A stretch of 64,000 nt of DNA, from the IMG/VR virus record IMGVR_UViG_3300022555_000003, positions 128,001 to 192,000 of that record; one strand, given 5' to 3'. Origin of the DNA: a virus (Duplodnaviria > Caudoviricetes). The notes beneath the pieces were generated by a model. The model was not told the origin of the DNA. It made no database searches and saw only the letters and a program-made list of their open reading frames with translations. This document shows, one piece after another, positions 13,890-55,953 of the stretch (position 1 is the first letter of the stretch; every line of letters begins with the position of its first letter). The position numbers and the translations under genes were made by a program.

Positions 13890-13945
13890 TAGTCCCAGCT
13901 TCTGGACTCGAACCAGCTTCAAGGCAATAATCTGTTGCGACCGGG
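13890..13945 (-). pseudogene. tRNA remnant (acceptor stem and T arm only)
   Basis: CCCGGTC/AGCTGGG-A-CTA with CTGG-TTCGAGT-CCAG; no recognisable D or anticodon arm. Confidence 0.5.
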
Positions 13946-13950
13946 AAATA

Positions 13951-14355: not shown

Positions 14356-14404
14356 AATTACTATTTAAGTATAACAGGTTTCCTATCTAGTTGTCAAATA
14401 CTGT

Positions 14405-14480
14405 TGGGAGCATAATTGGGTTCGAACCAATGACCTTCGGTTTCACAGGCCGACGTTCTTCCAACTGAACTATATGCTCC
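14405..14480 (-). tRNA. tRNA-His(GUG)
   Basis: cloverleaf, loop CT-GTG-AA, G-1:C73; CCA not encoded. Confidence 0.9.
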
Positions 14481-14685: not shown

Positions 14686-14696
14686 TTAATATATAG

Positions 14697-14770
14697 TAGG
14701 CCTAAATGGATTTGAACCATTGATCCCTGCCTTATCAAGACAGTGCTTTAACCAACTAAGCTATAGACCT
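14697..14770 (-). tRNA. tRNA-Ile(GAU)
   Basis: CTGTC-TTGATAA-GGCAG; ends A-CTA. Confidence 0.92.
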
Positions 14771-14780
14771 AAAATTTTTT

Positions 14781-14856
14781 GCCTTCGGGGATGGATTCGA
14801 ACCACCGACGCCAGCTGTTTCAAAGCTGCGCTCTACCAAACTGAGCTACCTCGAAG
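14781..14856 (-). tRNA. tRNA-Phe(GAA)
   Basis: CAGCT-TTGAAAC-AGCTG; acceptor stem appears to carry a bulged A. Confidence 0.8.
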
Positions 14857-14867
14857 AAAACTTATAG

Positions 14868-14941
14868 TCCTGGGAGATTGATTTGAACAATCGACTTCTA
14901 TCTTATGAGGATAGCACTCTACCAAGCTGAGCTATCCCAGG
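14868..14941 (-). tRNA. tRNA-Met or Ile2 (CAU)
   Basis: CTATC-CTCATAA-GATAG; ends A-CTA. Confidence 0.9.
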
Positions 14942-14949
14942 AAAAATTG

Positions 14950-15039
14950 TGGTGATAGGTTAGAGATTCGAACTCTAAAGGGCCCTAAGGACCGCTAGTT
15001 TTACAGACTAGTGCGACCAACCGTATTCGCGTACCTATC
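14950..15039 (-). tRNA. tRNA-Tyr(GUA)
   Basis: CTAGT-CTGTAAA-ACTAG, long variable arm, ACCA end. Confidence 0.92.
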
Positions 15040-15043
15040 AAAA

Positions 15044-15120
15044 CTGGAGCCGGAGAAAGGACTTGAACCTTCAATATCCGCATTACAGGTGCGGCGCTTC
15101 GCCAATTAAGCTACCCCGGC
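15044..15120 (-). tRNA. tRNA-Thr(UGU)
   Basis: CCGCA-CCTGTAA-TGCGG (C33 rather than U33), TCCA end. Confidence 0.85.
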
Positions 15121-15243
15121 AAAAACTTTATATTAATCTTTTAACATATAATTATATTTCAACTACATACAATATAAAAATTATACGAATTTCTCATAAA
15201 GAATATCTTTCAAAAGAAAAATTACCGATTATAATATCTAATC

Positions 15244-15331
15244 TGGAGCGGCATACGTGAATTGAACACGTTTTTAATCTTTTCAGAAGCTGGGGTGGAA
15301 ACCCAGTGATCACCCAATGACCCAATGCCGC
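15244..15331 (-). tRNA. tRNA-Gly(UCC) with 18-nt variable region
   Basis: GCGGCAT/ATGCCGC-T-CCA, CTGGG-TTTCCAC-CCCAG, variable CTTCTGAAAAGATTAAAA. Confidence 0.8.
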
Positions 15332-15339
15332 TCAAATTT

Positions 15340-15413
15340 TGGCGGGACCGGAGAGAATCAAACTCTCGACTTATGGGAGACAACCAAATGGTTTATCACT
15401 AACCTACGGTCCC
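15340..15413 (-). tRNA. tRNA-Asp(GUC)
   Basis: GGGACCG/CGGTCCC-G-CCA, loop TT-GTC-TC. Confidence 0.88.
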
Positions 15414-15424
15414 AAACTTATTAC

Positions 15425-15700
15425 TTATTTATTAAATCCGTTTAACTGCTTATACTTTTCTAACAATATCAATACATCTTCTTTAGTTTGATTAGCACAT
15501 GCTAAATCAACTAAATGTTGAATAATTTTTACAGCACCTATATGACTTAAATCATATTCTTGAACTGCATCAACATATTCCCAATCTGAAGAACCTGCAG
15601 CATCTAGCTGGCTATGTTTAACTCTAACTTTAGCTGAAACTGTCATAACTTCTAAGTCAGAATTTCCCATTACATCACATACTCTTTTAATAATCTGCAT
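15425..15700 (-). CDS. hypothetical protein
   Basis: ORF between tRNA-Trp and tRNA-Asp; ATG start chosen outside the tRNA. Confidence 0.55.
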   Translation of the reverse strand: MQIIKRVCDVMGNSDLEVMTVSAKVRVKHSQLDAAGSSDWEYVDAVQEYDLSHIGAVKIIQHLVDLACANQTKEDVLILLEKYKQLNGFNK

Positions 15701-15706
15701 ATACTT

Positions 15707-15794
15707 TGGCACCCCCTGTCAGATTCGAACTGACTTGATTTTTACATCACTGGGTTTGGAGTCCAGCGCGGCACACCATCTCCGCCGAAAGGGC
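15707..15794 (-). tRNA. tRNA with Trp anticodon (CCA) and long variable arm
   Basis: GCCCTTT/AGGGGGT-G-CCA, loop CT-CCA-AA, variable TGATGTAAAAATCAA. Confidence 0.82.
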
Positions 15795-15809
15795 GATAAT
15801 AAACTTTAG

Positions 15810-15882
15810 CTCTCGGAGCAGGACTCGAACCTGAAACATCCTGGTTAACAGCCAGGCGCTCTACCAATTGAGCTATCCGAGA
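15810..15882 (-). tRNA. tRNA-Asn(GUU)
   Basis: CCTGG-CTGTTAA-CCAGG; ends G-CTA. Confidence 0.93.
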
Positions 15883-15896
15883 ATAGCAAACTTTAA

Positions 15897-16034
15897 TGTT
15901 GTCCCAGCAAGTCGATATATTTCTATACCACAACAACCCGGCCTTCGCGAAGTTGACGGCTTTTCAGCATCTGATCTCAAAGCCGAAGCTCTGACGTTTT
16001 TCCAGGTTCTTCACTCTGGTCCACGCGGATCAAC
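15897..16034 (-). ncRNA. candidate structured ncRNA in tRNA cluster
   Basis: GC-rich segment with TCAGAGC-TTCG-GCTTTGA and GGTATA-GAAA-TATATC hairpins. Confidence 0.5.
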
Positions 16035-16045
16035 AAAATTTTTAG

Positions 16046-16119
16046 TCGGAGAAGCAGGATTCGGACCTGCGATATTCTGTTCCCAAAACAGACGGATTAC
16101 CAGACTTTCCCATTCTCCG
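16046..16119 (-). tRNA. tRNA-Pro(UGG)
   Basis: CGGAGAA/TTCTCCG, TCTGT-TTTGGGA-ACAGA; ends A-CTA. Confidence 0.9.
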
Positions 16120-16154
16120 ATAACATTATTATTTATCTTTTCTATTTCTCTTTA

Positions 16155-16183
16155 ATTATAGCAGTTTTTTCATTTCCTGTCAA
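16155..16183 (-). promoter_or_regulatory. sigma70-type promoter of the tRNA operon
   Basis: TTGACA-17-TATAAT with TG extension upstream of tRNA-Pro. Confidence 0.85.
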
Positions 16184-16332
16184 ATATTTCTTCCTCAATT
16201 AAAATCATTTCATATTTTCTCTTTATCACAGTTAGTGGAGGACGTTCAATCAATGTCAGACCGTCGCAATTACATTCAAATGAACACAGGCCTGATTCAC
16301 CAATAACAGAATTACATTTTATACAATAATAA

Positions 16333-16890
16333 TTAGTTACGAACAAATTTTTGTACTCCTAAAGTTCTCAAAACCTTCTGTACTGCAATTAATTGCCTAA
16401 AACAGTCGTCCATTGCATCATGCGTTACTTTTGGCTGCTTTACTGATACCAAATCGATAATAGTTCGCGAATCTCTAACCTGCCAATATGGCCAAGGTCG
16501 AGGCATATTATATTGTGCATAAGCATGTTCGAGCATTGAGATATCAAAAGTTGTTCCTTGTGCCCAAATTCGATCAGCTTTATTCCAAATAAATTTATGC
16601 AGTTGACTCAACGCTTCTTGCAACGAAACACGTACCAAACCTTCACCAAAAATACTATCTTGGACTGCTTGATCTTGTTGGCTCCACCATTTAATAGTAT
16701 CTGGATTAATAGTCCTTGTTGGTTGAGATTCAATATCAATTAATAGATGTAGTTGGGTAAGATCATATAGCTTTACACTCGAATTTTCATAATCCTGAAA
16801 TGGATCAAAACATACCGCTGCCATTGATACGATAGTTGCATTAACACTCGTATCTAATGTTTCTAAATCTATCATTATTGAATTGCTCAT
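16333..16890 (-). CDS. DEDDh 3'-5' exonuclease (DexA-like)
   Basis: MIDLETLD, WAQGTTFD, VRDSRT, HDAMDD. Confidence 0.85.
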   Translation of the reverse strand: MSNSIMIDLETLDTSVNATIVSMAAVCFDPFQDYENSSVKLYDLTQLHLLIDIESQPTRTINPDTIKWWSQQDQAVQDSIFGEGLVRVSLQEALSQLHKFIWNKADRIWAQGTTFDISMLEHAYAQYNMPRPWPYWQVRDSRTIIDLVSVKQPKVTHDAMDDCFRQLIAVQKVLRTLGVQKFVRN

Positions 16891-16950
16891 GTATTAAGTA
16901 TAGCAGTTCATTATAGAATTGTCAAACTTAAATTGATAAATACTTGTACT

Positions 16951-17205
16951 ATGGCAGCCAACGGAATTTCAACATTATCAACGAAAGAACTTAAACAGAT
17001 TGCGAAACTGAATCTAGCACAAACCAAACGACAAGCTGGTGGTAATACTTCTCAACCATTTTATCGACCACTTAATACGTACGATATTAATTTATTACCT
17101 ACGCACTATATTGGAGATACAGTTGTAAATAATGTCCACGCAGGTGATCCAACTCCAGGGAGGCCCTGGACTAATAATTTATCACTACAGAATATGATAA
17201 ATTAA
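16951..17205 (+). CDS. small late (probably virion-associated) protein
   Basis: MAANGISTL...GRPW; GATAAATA just upstream. Confidence 0.6.
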   Translation: MAANGISTLSTKELKQIAKLNLAQTKRQAGGNTSQPFYRPLNTYDINLLPTHYIGDTVVNNVHAGDPTPGRPWTNNLSLQNMIN

Positions 17206-17236
17206 ATAATGTTTATCAAAAGGAAAAAAGGAAAAT

Positions 17237-17750
17237 ATGAAACTAATTTTATTTCTAGCGCTGGCAGGCCTGGCTCACGGACAGACGCTCAACAGTGGAT
17301 CATCGGTTCTGAATGATGCTGTGAACTCGAAAGCGCCGATTGCGAACCCGACGTTTACGGGCAACGTAACGATTGGGGCTACAGTACCCAGTAACGCACC
17401 TCCGGCAAGCCTCTCTGTAAGCGGGAACGTGTATGCCGGGACACTCCCAGTCGCAACCTTCCGCAGCGGCTGGGGCGCGCCAACGGGCAACACCGACGCG
17501 CAACTCTACCTGGATCAAGCCAGCGGAACGATTTATTTCCAGTCCAGCGGGTTGTGGGCTCCGATGTCTACTGCGACACCCGTTTACGGCTGGTATGTGG
17601 ACCCTCACTGGCGCACCCGCCTGGGCTGCTAACAGACTTTACAAGGGTTCAATCTCCCGCGCTTCCGCTGGCATTTGGGACTGCTGGTACACGGGATCGA
17701 CGCCAGCAATAACTACCGGATTGGCTATACGACGATCACTGGGCTATAGG
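17237..17750 (+). pseudogene. GC-rich signal-peptide protein gene with two apparent frameshifts
   Basis: MKLILFLALAGLAHGQT; KAPIANPTFTG tail-fibre-type repeat; plausible continuation in other frames across CCC and GGG runs. Confidence 0.55.
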
Positions 17751-17995
17751 TAACGTAAATACGCGAAAGCGTTACGAGGAATTATGAAACTTCTAATCTT
17801 CTTCTTGATCGCATCGACGGCATGGGCGCAGACCATTGCCTCAACGTCAATCGGAACCTCATGCACGTTGGCGCAGGAGGCCACAGCAAATCCGACGCAG
17901 CAGACCGTCCAGTGGACCATCCCGGCGACGTAGACGGCATTGCCGTCTACGATCTCCATAAATCCAAGAGTATCCGCGATCTCCTCCACACGCAC
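17744..17995 (-). CDS. hypothetical protein in GC-rich island
   Basis: 83 aa ORF with GC-rich codons. Confidence 0.5.
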   Translation of the reverse strand: MRVEEIADTLGFMEIVDGNAVYVAGMVHWTVCCVGFAVASCANVHEVPIDVEAMVCAHAVDAIKKKIRSFIIPRNAFAYLRYL

Positions 17996-18023
17996 TTAAA
18001 TATTTTCCGATGTTCTTCTGTCA

Positions 18024-18227
18024 TTATCTGTCCTTGTCGGTTATGGCGTAATACAAACCAAGCGTGGAGATAAATAAACTAGAAACCATAGTGAATAGCG
18101 GAGCGTAAGACACGCTCCTCCATATCGGATCTGCCCACAAGTCGGAATGTAAAACATCAATAATCATCGCAGAGTCCAACAAGATAATCACGGACCAGAA
18201 AACTACCAAAATTTTACCCTTTGTCAT
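18024..18227 (-). CDS. small membrane protein
   Basis: two hydrophobic segments; SD GAAGGTGGAG. Confidence 0.55.
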   Translation of the reverse strand: MTKGKILVVFWSVIILLDSAMIIDVLHSDLWADPIWRSVSYAPLFTMVSSLFISTLGLYYAITDKDR

Positions 18228-18301
18228 GCTCCACCTTCACATTCATTCATAAAGGTTGGCAACGCCTTAACTAATTTTGATCTGTGTTCTACATTTTCCA
18301 T

Positions 18302-18586
18302 TTAGATTCCCCACCCTCTTTTATTGATTGATCCTTCACCAGATGATGTTCGTTCACCTTCGCGAACACGTCTTAGTGTTTCAATTAATAGATGTATTGT
18401 GCATTCTTGGCATAAATCAGCGTTGTCAATTTCATAATTATTATGGTGTTCTATTTTGATTTTTAATCTATCCCAATATGTACCAAATGACTCTTGTTCA
18501 AATGTTATTGCTAACGAACGACAATTCGTTAGCAATATTTTACCACAATAATCACAATTTATTTCTGTGTTTGTGTGCCTAGACAT
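18302..18586 (-). CDS. hypothetical protein with CxxC pairs
   Basis: CDYCG...CQEC. Confidence 0.6.
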   Translation of the reverse strand: MSRHTNTEINCDYCGKILLTNCRSLAITFEQESFGTYWDRLKIKIEHHNNYEIDNADLCQECTIHLLIETLRRVREGERTSSGEGSINKRGWGI

Positions 18587-19197
18587 GTATACTTCCTAAT
18601 TGACAGAGAAATTAAACCAACACCAATTAAAAATAATGTGTTTGGTTCAGGAATAGCTGTACTATAAGACAATTTTCCAAACTCAGCAGCAGGAGAAGTA
18701 CTTGCAACTACTAATTGATTTACTGAACCTTTGGTAATATTAAATCTTACATATGATACCACACTTTGATCTCCTGTACCTGGTGGGACTAATTGAGCTC
18801 CAGTGTATTGAGCAACCAATGCAGCACCATCCCAAAGTTGAAATACATTATATGCATCGGGCGATCCTAGTAAAAATTCAATATATGTTGCTGGTGTTGT
18901 GAAAGTAATTGAAATTAAATCTGGAACTCCACATCCTCCAACCCCAATATATGTATGTGCGTAACCAGCTAATGCAGCATTACAGTTCACTTGACTTCCA
19001 GAAAAGAATGGGGCATTACCAGCAGACCAATTTCCAATTACCACATTATTAATTGTATAGGGAGATGGAGTATTATGATCTAATCCATCGAATGAAATAG
19101 TAGTTGCTCCTGGTTGACTAGTAGAATTGTTGGTAAAAGAAACTGTGGTTGCGCTAGCCAAAACTAGCGAAAATAAACTAAGCAAAAGTATTTTCAT
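18559..19197 (-). CDS. PEP-CTERM (exosortase-substrate-like) surface protein
   Basis: signal peptide plus C-terminal IPEPNTLFLIGVGLISLSIRK. Confidence 0.8.
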   Translation of the reverse strand: MKILLLSLFSLVLASATTVSFTNNSTSQPGATTISFDGLDHNTPSPYTINNVVIGNWSAGNAPFFSGSQVNCNAALAGYAHTYIGVGGCGVPDLISITFTTPATYIEFLLGSPDAYNVFQLWDGAALVAQYTGAQLVPPGTGDQSVVSYVRFNITKGSVNQLVVASTSPAAEFGKLSYSTAIPEPNTLFLIGVGLISLSIRKYTCLGTQTQK

Positions 19198-19243
19198 TAT
19201 TATCTCCAAATATTACATCGATATTTATCAAACCCAGACAAGT

Positions 19244-19516
19244 TTAAATGGTGTTGATTTCGAACTCTTTACGAATAGTATCAATAAGATTATCAATAGC
19301 CATTCGTCCACGATGATCTCCTACTTCATCACAAGCATCCCACGAGATTTCAGCTAAATTCAAAACTCGTTCTATTGATGTTAATTCAACTTGTTGTAGT
19401 AGATCAAGTACATTAGATGCTTTTATGCCATCTGGTTTCAATCCAATAATAATATCAACCACATCGGGCATATACTTATTTCTATCCATAATTTTATGCA
19501 AGTTTGAGTGGTTCAA
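19244..19516 (-). CDS. hypothetical protein
   Basis: 90 aa ORF. Confidence 0.5.
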   Translation of the reverse strand: MNHSNLHKIMDRNKYMPDVVDIIIGLKPDGIKASNVLDLLQQVELTSIERVLNLAEISWDACDEVGDHRGRMAIDNLIDTIRKEFEINTI

Positions 19517-19883
19517 TCCAAGCTGCTAGATCGCCTTCTAGAGTTGCTGGCCATTCTTCTTCTTTAATTAGACAATAAATATTATCTGGAAGAATAATTC
19601 CAACAGCAGTCAATGCACCATTTAGTGACATTTCGTCTTCTCTAAATGCAGCCCAACAATAATTATTATTAACATCTGTTTTGCAGAATGTTTCAAACTG
19701 AGCTAGTTGAGCACTATTCCCTCCATTCAAGATGATAATAGTTTTGTCATCAGTTGCCCATTGCTTGAAATGCTTATGTTTCTTCATCGCCATCTCAGAA
19801 ATAACATGAGCAGACTGAAGACCACATTGAAGTTGAGACAAATAATAATTTGTCAAAATGTAAGCTCTGTAATTTTTATTCAT
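19494..19883 (-). CDS. peptidyl-tRNA hydrolase 2-like protein
   Basis: QCGLQSAHVISEM, KQW..KTIIILNG, EDE...ALTAVGI; directly downstream of tRNA-Val. Confidence 0.6.
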   Translation of the reverse strand: MNKNYRAYILTNYYLSQLQCGLQSAHVISEMAMKKHKHFKQWATDDKTIIILNGGNSAQLAQFETFCKTDVNNNYCWAAFREDEMSLNGALTAVGIILPDNIYCLIKEEEWPATLEGDLAAWIEPLKLA

Positions 19884-19893
19884 ATAAATTTAG

Positions 19894-19967
19894 TACCCAA
19901 AATAGGACTTGAACCTACAACATCTTGCTTGTAAAGCAAGCGCTCTAACCAATTGAGCTATTCGGGT
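19894..19967 (-). tRNA. tRNA-Val(UAC)
   Basis: CTTGC-TTTACAA-GCAAG; ends A-CTA. Confidence 0.92.
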
Positions 19968-19974
19968 AATTTAG

Positions 19975-20055
19975 TAGCCCCGGGAGAAGTTGAATCTCAT
20001 ACCGTCCGCCCAACTTTAAGGATCAGTTTAGAAGACTGATGTCGGGTTCGGGGCC
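19975..20055 (-). tRNA. tRNA-like RNA with Arg(UCU) anticodon arm and no D arm
   Basis: GGCCCCG/CGGGGCT acceptor, ATCAGT-CTTCTAA-ACTGAT, GAGA-TTCAACT-TCTC, extra helix CCCGAC/GTTGGG. Confidence 0.7.
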
Positions 20056-20215
20056 ATAATTTCTAAAACGATTTAACTGTGATTCTTTGCCATTTCTTAA
20101 AACTATTCCTAAAGAATGTAATATTTTTGCAAAATTAACAGGACTTGGATGATTATATTTTTTTGCTAATTCACTAAGTGAAAACCCATCATTATCACCT
20201 TGTTTTTAAATTTAG

Positions 20216-20288
20216 TTGGCCCAGACGGAATTGAACCGTCAACATCTTCATTAAAAGTGAAGCACTCTGCCAATTGAGTTATGGGCCA
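20216..20288 (-). tRNA. tRNA-Lys(UUU)
   Basis: CTTCA-CTTTTAA-TGAAG; ends A-CTA. Confidence 0.92.
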
Positions 20289-20297
20289 ATATACTAA

Positions 20298-20372
20298 TGG
20301 TAGGGAGTATTGGATTCGAACCAATAATGTCGGAGCCAAAGTCCAAAGGTTTGCCAATTAGCCTAACTCCCT
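20298..20372 (-). tRNA. tRNA-Gln(UUG)
   Basis: TTGGA-CTTTGGC-TCCGA; CCA encoded. Confidence 0.88.
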
Positions 20373-21005: not shown

Positions 21006-21779
21006 TCAACCACCCACTGATTCTAAAATTATTTGATCTGTAATGATACTTTGACAAAGATCATTTATGGTATCAAAATCTGGATATTCTGGTAGCATCT
21101 TGAGATTAGCTGCTTTTTGAGCATTATCTAATTCATTATCTACTAATAATATCCAATCACTTAGAGAAAGTCCGCCATTTCGAATATAAAGCAATTCATC
21201 AGCATCATTTCTAAAAATATTCATCTTTCCACTTAGGAAGAATTCAGTTGCCATCCTTAAAATTCGAATAGTATGCATGGCATATTTCACATCATACCCA
21301 TATTTTTCAACTAATAGCTTTCGTTTTGTACCTAGTTTTCCAGTAATGCAATTAACAACAGCATTTCTTTGACTTTGTGAATATCCAATAAGTGTGTTGT
21401 ATGCTTGTTGACTTTCAAATGCTTGTCGATTTTTGATTAAACTTTTTCCTTCGGGAGTAATAATAGTATATTCATGATCTCTCAAATATAGCAAAGGAAT
21501 AACATTTGGATTAAACTTAATACACAATTTCAAAAATTTTCGTAGTTCAAAAATAGTTGATTCTGCATTGATAGTTTCCTTTTTGTCTAGGACAAAAGTA
21601 TCTTCACCAGCAACAAGTCCAGTATAATACGAATTGGGTTTTAGAATAATACCCAAGAAGTCTACATCAGAATCTTCTGTGGCTGCTCCGTAAGATTGTG
21701 AACCAACTTGTCCAACAAGGATATACTTTCCCGACTCCTTAGGAAGGTTAAAATTTACATTATATTCTTCTGTGGTCAT
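21006..21779 (-). CDS. RlaP-like Pol-beta nucleotidyltransferase
   Basis: GSQSYGAATEDSDVD, NPNVIPLLY, YDVKYAMHTIR. Confidence 0.8.
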   Translation of the reverse strand: MTTEEYNVNFNLPKESGKYILVGQVGSQSYGAATEDSDVDFLGIILKPNSYYTGLVAGEDTFVLDKKETINAESTIFELRKFLKLCIKFNPNVIPLLYLRDHEYTIITPEGKSLIKNRQAFESQQAYNTLIGYSQSQRNAVVNCITGKLGTKRKLLVEKYGYDVKYAMHTIRILRMATEFFLSGKMNIFRNDADELLYIRNGGLSLSDWILLVDNELDNAQKAANLKMLPEYPDFDTINDLCQSIITDQIILESVGG

Positions 21780-25658: not shown

Positions 25659-25702
25659 ATTATTTATTTCCTGTATATCAGACCACTCTTCATATAATTC
25701 AG

Positions 25703-25776
25703 AGCCACGAGTCGGATTTGAACCGACGAATACGAGTTTTGCAGACTCGCGCCTTACCAGACTTGGCCATCGTGGC
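25703..25776 (-). tRNA. tRNA-Cys(GCA)
   Basis: CGAGT-CTGCAAA-ACTCG, U73; CCA not encoded. Confidence 0.92.
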
Positions 25777-47458: not shown

Positions 47459-48355
47459 TCACTCTGACCAAGTAATATATCCCCTATTGTAATTTGGTTG
47501 GCGATTCTTTCCGTCTTCAAATGCTAATTCCCATTCTGTATTACGATCATAACTTCTTGTCCAAAAAGCATTAACATTCAATCTACCTGATTCAATATAT
47601 TTTACTGCTTTGAGCATACAAGAATGAAATTTGCTAGATCTTGGACTTGGAAAAACAATTGTAGCTGCTTTCCATAATAAATTGCTAAAGTCAGTAGTTA
47701 CTTGCTTTTGAGATCCCATTACAACTAATGCATTGTCATTAAGAATATCTTTAGAAAATACATCGTCTCTTCCACTCAAATCAATAACAATATCGTACTT
47801 TCCTCTAGGATCTGACAATAATTTATTTCCCCAAAGTTGTTTATTTGACGTTCCAACTACATCAATCAATCCTCTAATATTGTCAAGAATAGTAGCATGA
47901 GCAACCCGTGCTAAAAATCCACTTCCAAGAATTAAAATTCTAGTTGTTAATTTATCACGTTTAATAAATTCATGATGGGATTGTAAAATTAAATTTATTC
48001 CACATGCAACTGGTTCAATAATATATTTTGGTTCAGCAGCAGGAACTTTAACAAAATTATCAACATTAACATTATAAAAATCTGCATATGCTGGCTCGCC
48101 TCTTGTAGCAACATAATCGCCAATTTTATACATGGATGGAATATTTACGCCAACTTCTATAATTTGTCCTAGACCTTCATGTCCTTGCATTGTTAATGGA
48201 AGTGTTTTGAATTTTCCAGTCATCATGTCGATATCACTTCTACAGACACCAGTCATGATGGACTTTACTTTTATCTCATCATATTTAATTTCTGGACAAC
48301 TCCAATCGGTTTTCTCAAAAAACTTGCCTGATCCATCAGTGTGCAATAATCTCAT
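47459..48355 (-). CDS. Zn-dependent medium-chain dehydrogenase-like protein
   Basis: GVCRSD, GHEGLG, GDYV, EPVAC, ILGSGFL. Confidence 0.85.
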   Translation of the reverse strand: MRLLHTDGSGKFFEKTDWSCPEIKYDEIKVKSIMTGVCRSDIDMMTGKFKTLPLTMQGHEGLGQIIEVGVNIPSMYKIGDYVATRGEPAYADFYNVNVDNFVKVPAAEPKYIIEPVACGINLILQSHHEFIKRDKLTTRILILGSGFLARVAHATILDNIRGLIDVVGTSNKQLWGNKLLSDPRGKYDIVIDLSGRDDVFSKDILNDNALVVMGSQKQVTTDFSNLLWKAATIVFPSPRSSKFHSCMLKAVKYIESGRLNVNAFWTRSYDRNTEWELAFEDGKNRQPNYNRGYITWSE

Positions 48356-55155: not shown

Positions 55156-55188
55156 GAAATTGGAGCGTATAAATTACGCTCCATTTTC
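55156..55188. terminator. terminator between convergent genes
   Basis: TGGAGCGTA-TAAAT-TACGCTCCA with A/T flanks. Confidence 0.7.
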
Positions 55189-55953
55189 ATGAGTGAGGAA
55201 ATATTTAAATATTTCTTGTTGATCTTTTCTTATTTTCAATAAATCGTCTGGTAAAGTAAACCACTTAGTATTACCAGTTTCAAAGTCTGTATTAGAAAAG
55301 TTATTAGGATCAAATATTTCACAAGCAAATACATGCAAATCGTATTGTTTATACTTAAAAATATTTATTGGCTCAACTTGTTTGACATTTGAAAGAACTA
55401 ATCCAACTTCTTCTTGTGCTTCTTTCAATGCATTATTTATTGGGCTGTAACTTGGTTCAATTCCACCTTTTGCTAATTGAAATTTTGTTCCACCAAATGA
55501 AGGATCAGACGGTTTCATTAGTAATACTTTTAATTTACCATTATCATAGTAATATGGAATCATCCCCGACTTATCTCTTTGTTTAGTTGAAATATCATGT
55601 AAAAACTTTATAGCTTGTAGCTTATTAGGAAATTCATGAAATAAATTAGTCTTTTCGTCTGTCAGATTGAAAGCATACCCACCACTAAGTGGATGCGAAG
55701 CAATATGTTTAATAATATTAAGAATATTTTTAGTAGTAGATTTAAATTCGTATTCAATTCTGGTTCCTGGAGTAAAGTTAACTCCACCCAAATAAGTAGC
55801 AAATCGTACCGCACCATTGTTCATTTCTAGATCAATATCTGGAACTAGATCTCTGTGTGCTGCTGGATAGTATCCTGAAAATCTTTCAATTAGTTTGCCG
55901 CTGGCTGTTATTAATCCAAAATATGTTTGATGTTCAACTTCATTTAATCTCAT
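55174..55953 (-). CDS. NUDIX hydrolase with MxLxE leader
   Basis: KGGIE...ALKEAQEEVGL. Confidence 0.85.
   Translation of the reverse strand: MRLNEVEHQTYFGLITASGKLIERFSGYYPAAHRDLVPDIDLEMNNGAVRFATYLGGVNFTPGTRIEYEFKSTTKNILNIIKHIASHPLSGGYAFNLTDEKTNLFHEFPNKLQAIKFLHDISTKQRDKSGMIPYYYDNGKLKVLLMKPSDPSFGGTKFQLAKGGIEPSYSPINNALKEAQEEVGLVLSNVKQVEPINIFKYKQYDLHVFACEIFDPNNFSNTDFETGNTKWFTLPDDLLKIRKDQQEIFKYFLTHENGA

Follow-up and report, generated by a model that had tools for sequence, protein, structure and literature searches.

Half of the tRNA genes in a giant phage of the class Caudoviricetes, represented by the IMG/VR record IMGVR_UViG_3300022555_000003, encode a 3′ end in which the middle base of CCA is replaced while its neighbours are kept. 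The record is 242 kb long with 33% G+C and is approximately 74% complete. The window, by which we mean the whole stretch of 64,000 nucleotides analysed here, covers bases 128001-192000 of that record. The ends CTA, CAA and CTG found in this phage are partial CCA ends: the templated C75 can be lost, whereas C74 and A76 are held. The explanation that we favour, and consider probable, is that loss of the templated C75 is tolerated, with the end being repaired by trimming and CCA addition. Under this explanation the altered ends would be neither a dedicated signal nor dependent on the CCA-adding-type enzyme that the phage itself encodes.

The 3′ ends of the tRNA genes

Genes for tRNAs were identified using ARAGORN, Rfam and direct reading of the sequence. 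ARAGORN detected 14 in the window and 20 in the genome, and Rfam added a tRNA with a Trp anticodon (15710-15794) beyond the ARAGORN set. The discriminator base (N73) was fixed via pairing of the acceptor stem, and the next three bases were read as positions 74-76. Ends with C74 and A76 in which position 75 is any base but C are denoted C-D-A.

Together with the Trp-anticodon tRNA and an Arg-like RNA, the ARAGORN genes made up 22 tRNA-type genes in the genome. Position 74 was C in all 22 and position 76 was A in 21 of them, while position 75 was C in 8, T in 11 and A in 3. Non-CCA ends were present in 12 of the 20 ARAGORN genes, as well as in the Arg-like gene and in a truncated tRNA-like remnant (Table 1). 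A preliminary description of this DNA, made from its letters alone, had listed N73-CTA after the Ile, Met, Asn, Pro, Val, Arg-like and Lys genes and after the remnant, and encoded CCA for Tyr, Thr, Gly, Asp, a Trp-like tRNA and Gln. The CTA ends, read as TAG on the plus strand, were all recovered at the coordinates given there by ARAGORN, Rfam and direct reading, the Arg-like one being identified by its fold, and the CCA ends were likewise confirmed. Beyond that description, C-CAA was found in His, G-CAA in Phe and T-CTG in Cys, along with six further tRNA genes at 40-50 kb of the genome.

The tRNA bodies were intact, scoring 47-73 bits against an Rfam threshold of 29 and having 6-7 of 7 acceptor pairs. 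This did not hold for the Arg-like RNA and the remnant. The Arg-like RNA was missed by ARAGORN and Rfam, yet it folds with an 8-bp acceptor stem. Since their bodies are intact, the tRNA genes are taken to be working genes in need of a CCA end, and transcripts ending in CUA or CAA would presumably require trimming and re-tailing before charging.

The recurrence of CTA ends is non-random. CTA constitutes 1.45% of genomic trinucleotides, and the probability of at least nine CTA ends in 20 genes is 4e-12, bearing out the earlier claim that a seven-fold recurrence exceeds what random loss of CCA would produce. Among the 12 non-CCA ARAGORN genes, the probability of finding C74 in all 12, as observed, is 4e-10, and that of A76 in at least 11 is 5e-5. 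Counted as single-step departures from CCA, all 12 fell at position 75 ((1/3)^12 = 2e-6). A mutation bias from CpC to CpT was rejected as the cause of the CTA ends, since the dinucleotides of the genome displayed neither CpC depletion nor CpT excess (rho of 1.03 for CC and 0.95 for CT). The position specificity is therefore unexplained by dinucleotide bias. The preliminary description had named such a bias, coupled with independence from the phage enzyme, as the outcome that would speak against its proposal. No dependence on the enzyme was found (see below), but the bias was absent.

The orthologous tRNA genes of a close relative were also compared. L001, a 19.8-kb IMG/VR contig, was the sole close relative and provided seven tRNA pairs. 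A megablast search of cultured phages with the tRNA array returned no match, and the exact tRNA-Met pattern detected one relative in IMG/VR (L001) and none in the JGI metagenomes. The proteins of an RlaP-family gene and of an exonuclease gene were 75% and 82% identical, respectively, between the two phages. The body of tRNA-Met was 99% identical to its ortholog, but its end was CTA here and CCA in L001. The same difference was found in Ile and Pro, and the reverse one in Gln (CCA here, CTA in L001). His ended in CAA in both phages, with bodies only 70% identical, and Asp and Tyr ended in CCA in both. Over the seven pairs, none of the 14 comparisons at positions 74 and 76 gave a difference, as against 4 of the 7 at position 75, while the adjacent spacer (positions 77-84) differed at 24 of 56 sites (43%). 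At the spacer rate, the probability of 0 in 14 is 4e-4. With L001 as the sole relative, the changes at position 75 are unpolarised. Position 75 behaves as unconstrained sequence and positions 74 and 76 as constrained. The suggestion that CUA is a processing signal did not survive this comparison. Position 75 flips at the neutral spacer rate and other lineages use A or G there, and so CUA is not a conserved signal.

Table 1. Features of the window and further tRNA genes of the genome, with the bases read at the 3′ ends of the tRNA genes (window positions unless marked).
Feature	Position	Strand	Base 73	Bases 74-76	Remarks
Truncated tRNA-like remnant	13890..13946	-	A	CTA (13890-13892)	Acceptor stem, short anticodon-like hairpin, T arm
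tRNA-His(GUG)	14404..14479	-	C	CAA	
tRNA-Ile(GAU)	14694..14770	-	A	CTA (14694-14696)	ARAGORN, Rfam and direct reading
tRNA-Phe(GAA)	14779..14856	-	G	CAA by ARAGORN stem; GCA by Rfam alignment	Irregular acceptor stem and linker
tRNA-Met/Ile2(CAU)	14865..14941	-	A	CTA (14865-14867)	
tRNA-Tyr, Thr, Gly, Asp	14950..15413	-		CCA in all	Long variable arm in Gly
Trp-anticodon tRNA	15707..15794	-	G	CCA	Long variable arm; Rfam
tRNA-Asn(GUU)	15807..15882	-	G	CTA (15807-15809)	
tRNA-Pro(UGG)	16043..16119	-	A	CTA (16043-16045)	
Rv2179c/DexA-family 3′-5′ exonuclease	16333..16890	-			Inside the array, just upstream of tRNA-Pro; syntenic in L001 (6400-6945)
tRNA-Val(UAC)	19891..19967	-	A	CTA (19891-19893)	
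Arg-like (UCU loop) tRNA-shaped RNA	19972..20056	-	A	CTA (19972-19974)	Irregular D and T regions
tRNA-Lys(UUU)	20213..20288	-	A	CTA (20213-20215)	
tRNA-Gln(UUG)	20298..20372	-	A	CCA	
tRNA-Cys(GCA)	25700..25776	-	U	CTG	
Class II CCA-adding-type nucleotidyltransferase with HD domain	55950..57398	-			PF01743 (1.9e-22), PF12627 (3.3e-15), PF01966 (1.8e-7)
tRNA-Glu, Met2, Leu	40-50 kb of genome	+		CTA	
tRNA-Ala	40-50 kb of genome	+		CAA	
tRNA-Ser (two)	40-50 kb of genome	+		CCA	

The spacers between the tRNA genes were 5-10 nt long, A-rich and then U-rich. The trailers (positions 77-82) shared a start resembling A-A-U-U-U-U, with A78 in 16 of 20 genes and T at positions 79-82 in 10-13 of 20, and CTAAAT recurred 3′ of five tRNA genes. 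This shared start may reflect an RNase P leader preference or a nuclease site. The 162-nt G+C-rich spacer between Pro and Asn was considered as a structured RNA and discarded (z = -0.8, unconserved in L001).

Several of the tRNAs were unusual in structure. In tRNA-Phe the acceptor stem has an A:C mismatch and the linker from acceptor to D stem has 3 bases, not 2, and the ends given by ARAGORN and Rfam differ by one base. Leu(CAA), at genome positions 48246-48321, is only 75 nt long and has no long variable arm, and long variable arms were found in Gly(UCC) (15244-15331) and in the Trp-anticodon tRNA (15707-15794). Those tRNAs with a long variable arm (two Ser, Tyr, Gly and Trp) carried CCA in 5 of 5 genes vs 3 of the 17 others (Fisher p = 0.002). 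As a general rule, retention of CCA with a long arm was rejected, as the association had p = 0.06 in other phages and was absent in bacteria. Neither did discriminator A73 favour the loss of CCA: A73 preceded 8 of 9 CTA ends here, but the pooled odds ratio elsewhere was 1.0.

The tRNA array is interrupted at 16930-19210 by an island of higher G+C content (approximately 43% vs 33%). Two plus-strand open reading frames in it (17237-17632 and 17784-17933) begin with signal-peptide-like sequences, and the minus-strand protein at 18559-19209 has a PEP-CTERM sorting motif (PF07589, 3e-5). It may have been acquired from the host and could offer a clue to the identity of that host.

Partial CCA ends in other phages and bacteria

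In IMG/VR, tRNA arrays selected by a D-arm motif contained 567 tRNA genes, 322 with CCA and 245 without. The 245 non-CCA genes kept C74 in 71% of cases but C75 in only 7%. Their commonest forms were CAA (62) and CTA (27), and some loci were nearly all CAA or CAA/CTA. Similar sampling of bacteria in GTDB yielded 254 tRNA genes, including 172 with CCA and 82 without, and the latter retained C74 in 80% and A76 in 32 of 82. The ends CAA, CTA, CTT, CAG and CGA occurred in Flavobacterium, Pedobacter, Zunongwangia and Ignavibacteria. As in the phage, the bacterial CCA-less genes mostly combined C74 with a base other than C75 (CAA in Flavobacterium, CTA, CTT or CAA in Pedobacter, CAA, CGA or CTT in Ignavibacteria), although they kept A76 less often. 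Bacteria whose genes do not template CCA are known from Bacteroidetes/Chlorobi, Cyanobacteria and Actinobacteria (Ardell and Hou 2016, PMC5143459). That study scored CCA as present or absent only, and partial ends were not mentioned in it.

The cultured phages with the closest DNA polymerases (37-44% identity), which are distant relatives, infect Proteobacteria, and their tRNA-rich stretches were sampled. Of the 45 non-CCA ends in these jumbo phages, 42 were of the C-D-A type. Yersinia phage fHe-Yen9-03, with 26 sampled tRNA genes, had 13 CAA, 3 CTA, 2 CGA and 8 CCA ends, and Pectobacterium phage CBB, with 27, had 9 CAA, 1 CGA and 17 CCA. The non-CCA ends included 3 CTA, 2 CAA and 1 CCG in Vibrio phage 2.275.O (18 tRNA genes) and 2 CAA and 2 CTA in Agrobacterium phage Atu_ph07 (23 tRNA genes), and one or two were found in each of PA5oct, Munch, Kae01 and Phosso. 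The Leu(UAA) and Met orthologs of CBB and fHe-Yen9-03, which are 91-92% identical, flip between CCA and CAA. Like the phage studied here, fHe-Yen9-03, CBB, 2.275.O and Atu_ph07 replaced only position 75 and possess a CCA-type enzyme, but they prefer A over T at that position while this phage prefers T. The substitute base was lineage-specific, with 22 CAA vs 3 CTA and 3 CGA in CBB and fHe-Yen9-03 together, and 11 T vs 3 A here.

Since Proteobacteria hosts template CCA in practically all of their tRNA genes (PMC5143459), the C-D-A habit of their phages was not copied from the host. Phage T5 carried CCA in 22 of 22 clean tRNA genes, and the habit is thus lineage-specific. Distant huge phages with an RlaP gene also differed among themselves: CCA was encoded by 24 of 24 tRNA genes in G003 and 20 of 20 in G006, G004 had 35 CCA and 7 CAA ends, and in G007 only 1 of 39 genes had CCA, with C74 in 38 and A76 in 20 of the 39.

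Phage T4 has, like this phage, a short-spacer tRNA array mixing CCA and CCA-less genes, for which trimming and CCA addition are needed. The 3′ trimming of the CCA-less T4 tRNAs is carried out by the host nuclease BN. The T4 ends were read as A-CUG in Pro, G-C in Gln, A-UAU in Ile and an AAU-type trailer in Ser, the last of which is otherwise known as UAA. T4 Pro and Gln also keep C74, as here. T4 Ile and Ser keep no part of CCA, whereas in the present phage all non-CCA genes keep C74 and all but one keep A76. A further difference is that a CCA enzyme is encoded by this phage but not by T4. Some T4 tRNAs need the host tRNA nucleotidyltransferase, according to the work of Deutscher, Foulds and McClain (1974), which is listed in PMC6468291.

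Bacillus subtilis is similar in having two classes of tRNA gene in one genome. RNase Z cleaves its CCA-less precursors just 3′ of the discriminator and the CCA enzyme supplies the missing end, according to Pellegrini et al. (2003) as cited in PMC1874595. CCA acts there as an anti-determinant of the endonuclease, and the end is rebuilt. Firmicute-style ends are mostly U-first (TAT, TGA and TAG in Paenibacillus, and T-type phage loci), in contrast to the C-D-A ends found here.

The phage CCA-type enzyme and candidate nucleases

The gene at 55950-57398 encodes the only class II CCA-type nucleotidyltransferase of the genome, and its translation contains the motifs GGFVRD..DID, RRDFTIN (motif B) and EDPLR (motif D). 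The protein is full-length, comprises a PolyA_pol head, an RNA-binding domain and an HD domain, and retains the complete set of catalytic and templating motifs. The best model was TIGR02692 (tRNA_CCA_actino), which matched over its full length with 244 bits vs a cut-off of 438.8, and PcnB models scored lower. As the curated equivalog cut-off was not reached, we infer the CCA specificity: the protein is likely to be a CCA-adding enzyme and not an A-adding enzyme or poly(A) polymerase. It is flanked on the minus strand by a NUDIX protein and a GNAT acetyltransferase (55174-55953 and 57408-57884). The tRNA array itself is bordered by an RlaP-family (RNA-repair-linked) nucleotidyltransferase (21006-21779, minus strand). 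In the distant phages L004, L009 and L016, the CCA-enzyme homolog lies at most 10 kb from the RlaP gene, and that of L016 is located within an array of 14 tRNA genes, all of them with CCA.

Homologs of the enzyme were found in several phages in which all fetched tRNA genes encode CCA (G006, 20/20; G015, 14/14; G027, 8/8; L016, 14/14; Hallingskeid, 6/6), and in Phosso, where 51 of 53 do. A CCA-type enzyme was also present in fHe-Yen9-03, CBB, 2.275.O and Atu_ph07, and it was absent from the complete phages G036, G050, G046 and T4, which have CCA-less genes. Among 59 phage records, the presence of a phage CCA enzyme and that of CCA-less tRNA genes were not associated. The specific tie between tRNA maturation and the phage's own enzyme, as put forward in the preliminary description, is therefore not supported.

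The exonuclease encoded inside the array is a distant homolog of T4 DexA, a DNA exonuclease with which it shares 25% identity, and it was found to adjoin tRNA genes only here and in the sister phage L001. It may act on RNA or on DNA, and a role as a dedicated tRNA trimmer is conjectural. No RNase P RNA was detected in the window with Rfam.

Proposed maturation of the tRNAs with partial CCA ends

In the route that we favour, the RNase P cut of the next tRNA in the array would free a transcript ending in C-U-A plus the spacer. Given spacers of 5-10 nt, the 3′ trailer left after this cut would be short, as in T4. A host nuclease would then nibble or cut the 3′ end back, probably to C74, on which exonucleases would act poorly and which would naturally serve to prime extension. 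Addition of C75 and A76 would subsequently fall to a CCA-adding enzyme, either that of the host or that of the phage. C74 would thus be kept as an RNase P contact, an exonuclease stop and a primer. Position 75, we propose, is free because it is always replaced when the end is rebuilt. Efficient repair would likewise make C-to-T at position 75 nearly neutral, and this change would be the commonest tolerated mutation in a genome with 33% G+C. T4 tRNAs from CCA-less genes are known to mature in this way, and the enzymatic steps have precedents. The RNA of RNase P forms base pairs with C74 and C75, and CCA blocks RNase Z, which acts on precursors lacking it (PMC1874595). RNase T trims short trailers and removes A76 but has almost no activity on a 3′ C, and the end is restored by the CCA enzyme (PMC6468291). 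Trimming and re-tailing, as the preliminary description proposed, is hence reasonable on the analogy of T4 and of bacterial genes lacking CCA, though its link to the phage enzyme is not supported.

Some observations weigh against this route. If rebuilding starts from C74, there is no obvious need for the strict retention of A76 that marks this phage and, with few exceptions, the jumbo phages of Proteobacteria. In this phage it may be due to recency or to a nuclease preference for purine ends, and A76 has drifted in G007, where CCA-less genes are long-standing. At a neutral position 75, A/T would be expected at approximately 67% and G at approximately 16%, while C was observed at 36% and G was absent, so that weak selection for C or a recent origin must be assumed. 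The preference for A elsewhere, with the 22 CAA vs 3 CTA of CBB and fHe-Yen9-03, is unexplained by plain transition bias. Finally, no RNase Z-type (Lactamase_B_2) or RNase_T family gene was found in the phage, whose record is approximately 74% complete.

Replacement of C75 could instead be a selected routing switch, which would remove the CC "do not cut" mark and send chosen tRNAs to RNase Z/BN-type cutting and CCA addition. The flipping of position 75 would then be adaptive, a means of adjusting when, in what amount or under what quality control individual tRNAs are made. Frozen C74 and A76 next to a flipping position 75 would fit this idea, as would the block of RNase Z by CCA (PMC1874595), the retention of CCA in the long-arm tRNAs of this phage, and a substitute that differs by lineage (T here, A in CBB, fHe-Yen9-03 and L108, mixed in G007). 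However, the long-arm association was weak in other phages and absent in bacteria, the discriminator had no link to the loss of CCA, the sister phage mostly has CCA on the same tRNAs, no RNase Z was found in the phage, and flipping at the spacer rate is the neutral prediction. We consider selected routing unlikely, and it seems rather improbable that position 75 is a deliberate switch in the fuller sense, with the CC mark destroyed and chosen tRNAs forced through cutting and rebuilding by a CCA enzyme that the phage brings along. If it were, the phage would control its own tRNA pool in timing or in quality, or host factors reading CCA would fail to see its precursors, and the rebuilding pathway would use C74 and A76 as its handles. 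Specific maturation of the CTA precursors by the product of 55950-57398, perhaps delivered in the virion, would make the tRNA supply independent of the host. The phage does encode a complete class II enzyme, and relatives of this enzyme lie close to RlaP genes and, in L016, inside the tRNA array. Yet the enzyme occurs in phages that are all or nearly all CCA, is missing from G036, G050, G046 and T4 in spite of their CCA-less genes, and T4 relies on that of its host. Such a dependence is quite improbable.

Plain decay, in which context-specific C-to-T mutation strikes CCA and C74 and A76 persist through recency only, would be in keeping with the low G+C content, with T being the transition product of C, and with changes as recent as that in the nearly identical Met ortholog. 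It is very improbable in view of the unremarkable CpC and CpT frequencies, the lack of change at positions 74 and 76 beside a spacer that differs at 43% of sites, the C-A-A end of His shared by both phages in spite of divergent bodies, and the maintenance of C74 in G007, which is almost without CCA. We give hardly any credence to the remaining view, that the tRNAs function with a CUA or CAA end or are protected by the odd end from CCA-recognising toxins or nucleases of the host. A76, the charged residue, is present in 21 of the 22 genes, and U75 might form wobble pairs with the G residues that are the usual partners of C75. CCA is nevertheless universal on active tRNAs, A75, as in the CAA dominant in other phages, is unable to pair, the same tRNA genes have CCA in the sister phage, and a literature search found no report of functional CUA or CAA ends. 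Protection against CCA-directed toxins, another suggestion of the preliminary description, is unlikely since the mature tRNA requires CCA regardless.

Tolerated loss of C75 with repair of the end thus remains our preferred explanation. Phage tRNA genes lacking CCA are familiar from T4 onwards, but frozen C74 and A76 with a free, flipping position 75 were not found in the papers searched. A search for partial CCA ends in phages returned nothing specific, and no paper was found that remarks on the habit of the jumbo phages. The present phage is a local, T-flavoured case of a widespread and apparently unremarked rule, namely that only the templated C75 is dispensable. For annotation, this means that a CTA or CAA end is no mark of a pseudogene. 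Taken alone, the window is one further example of a common habit. The general rule is more interesting, and cultured phages allow its testing, as the habit recurs in those of Yersinia, Pectobacterium, Vibrio and Agrobacterium. It would be a rule on which parts of a templated CCA matter before maturation, through pairing with RNase P, stopping of exonucleases and priming of CA addition.

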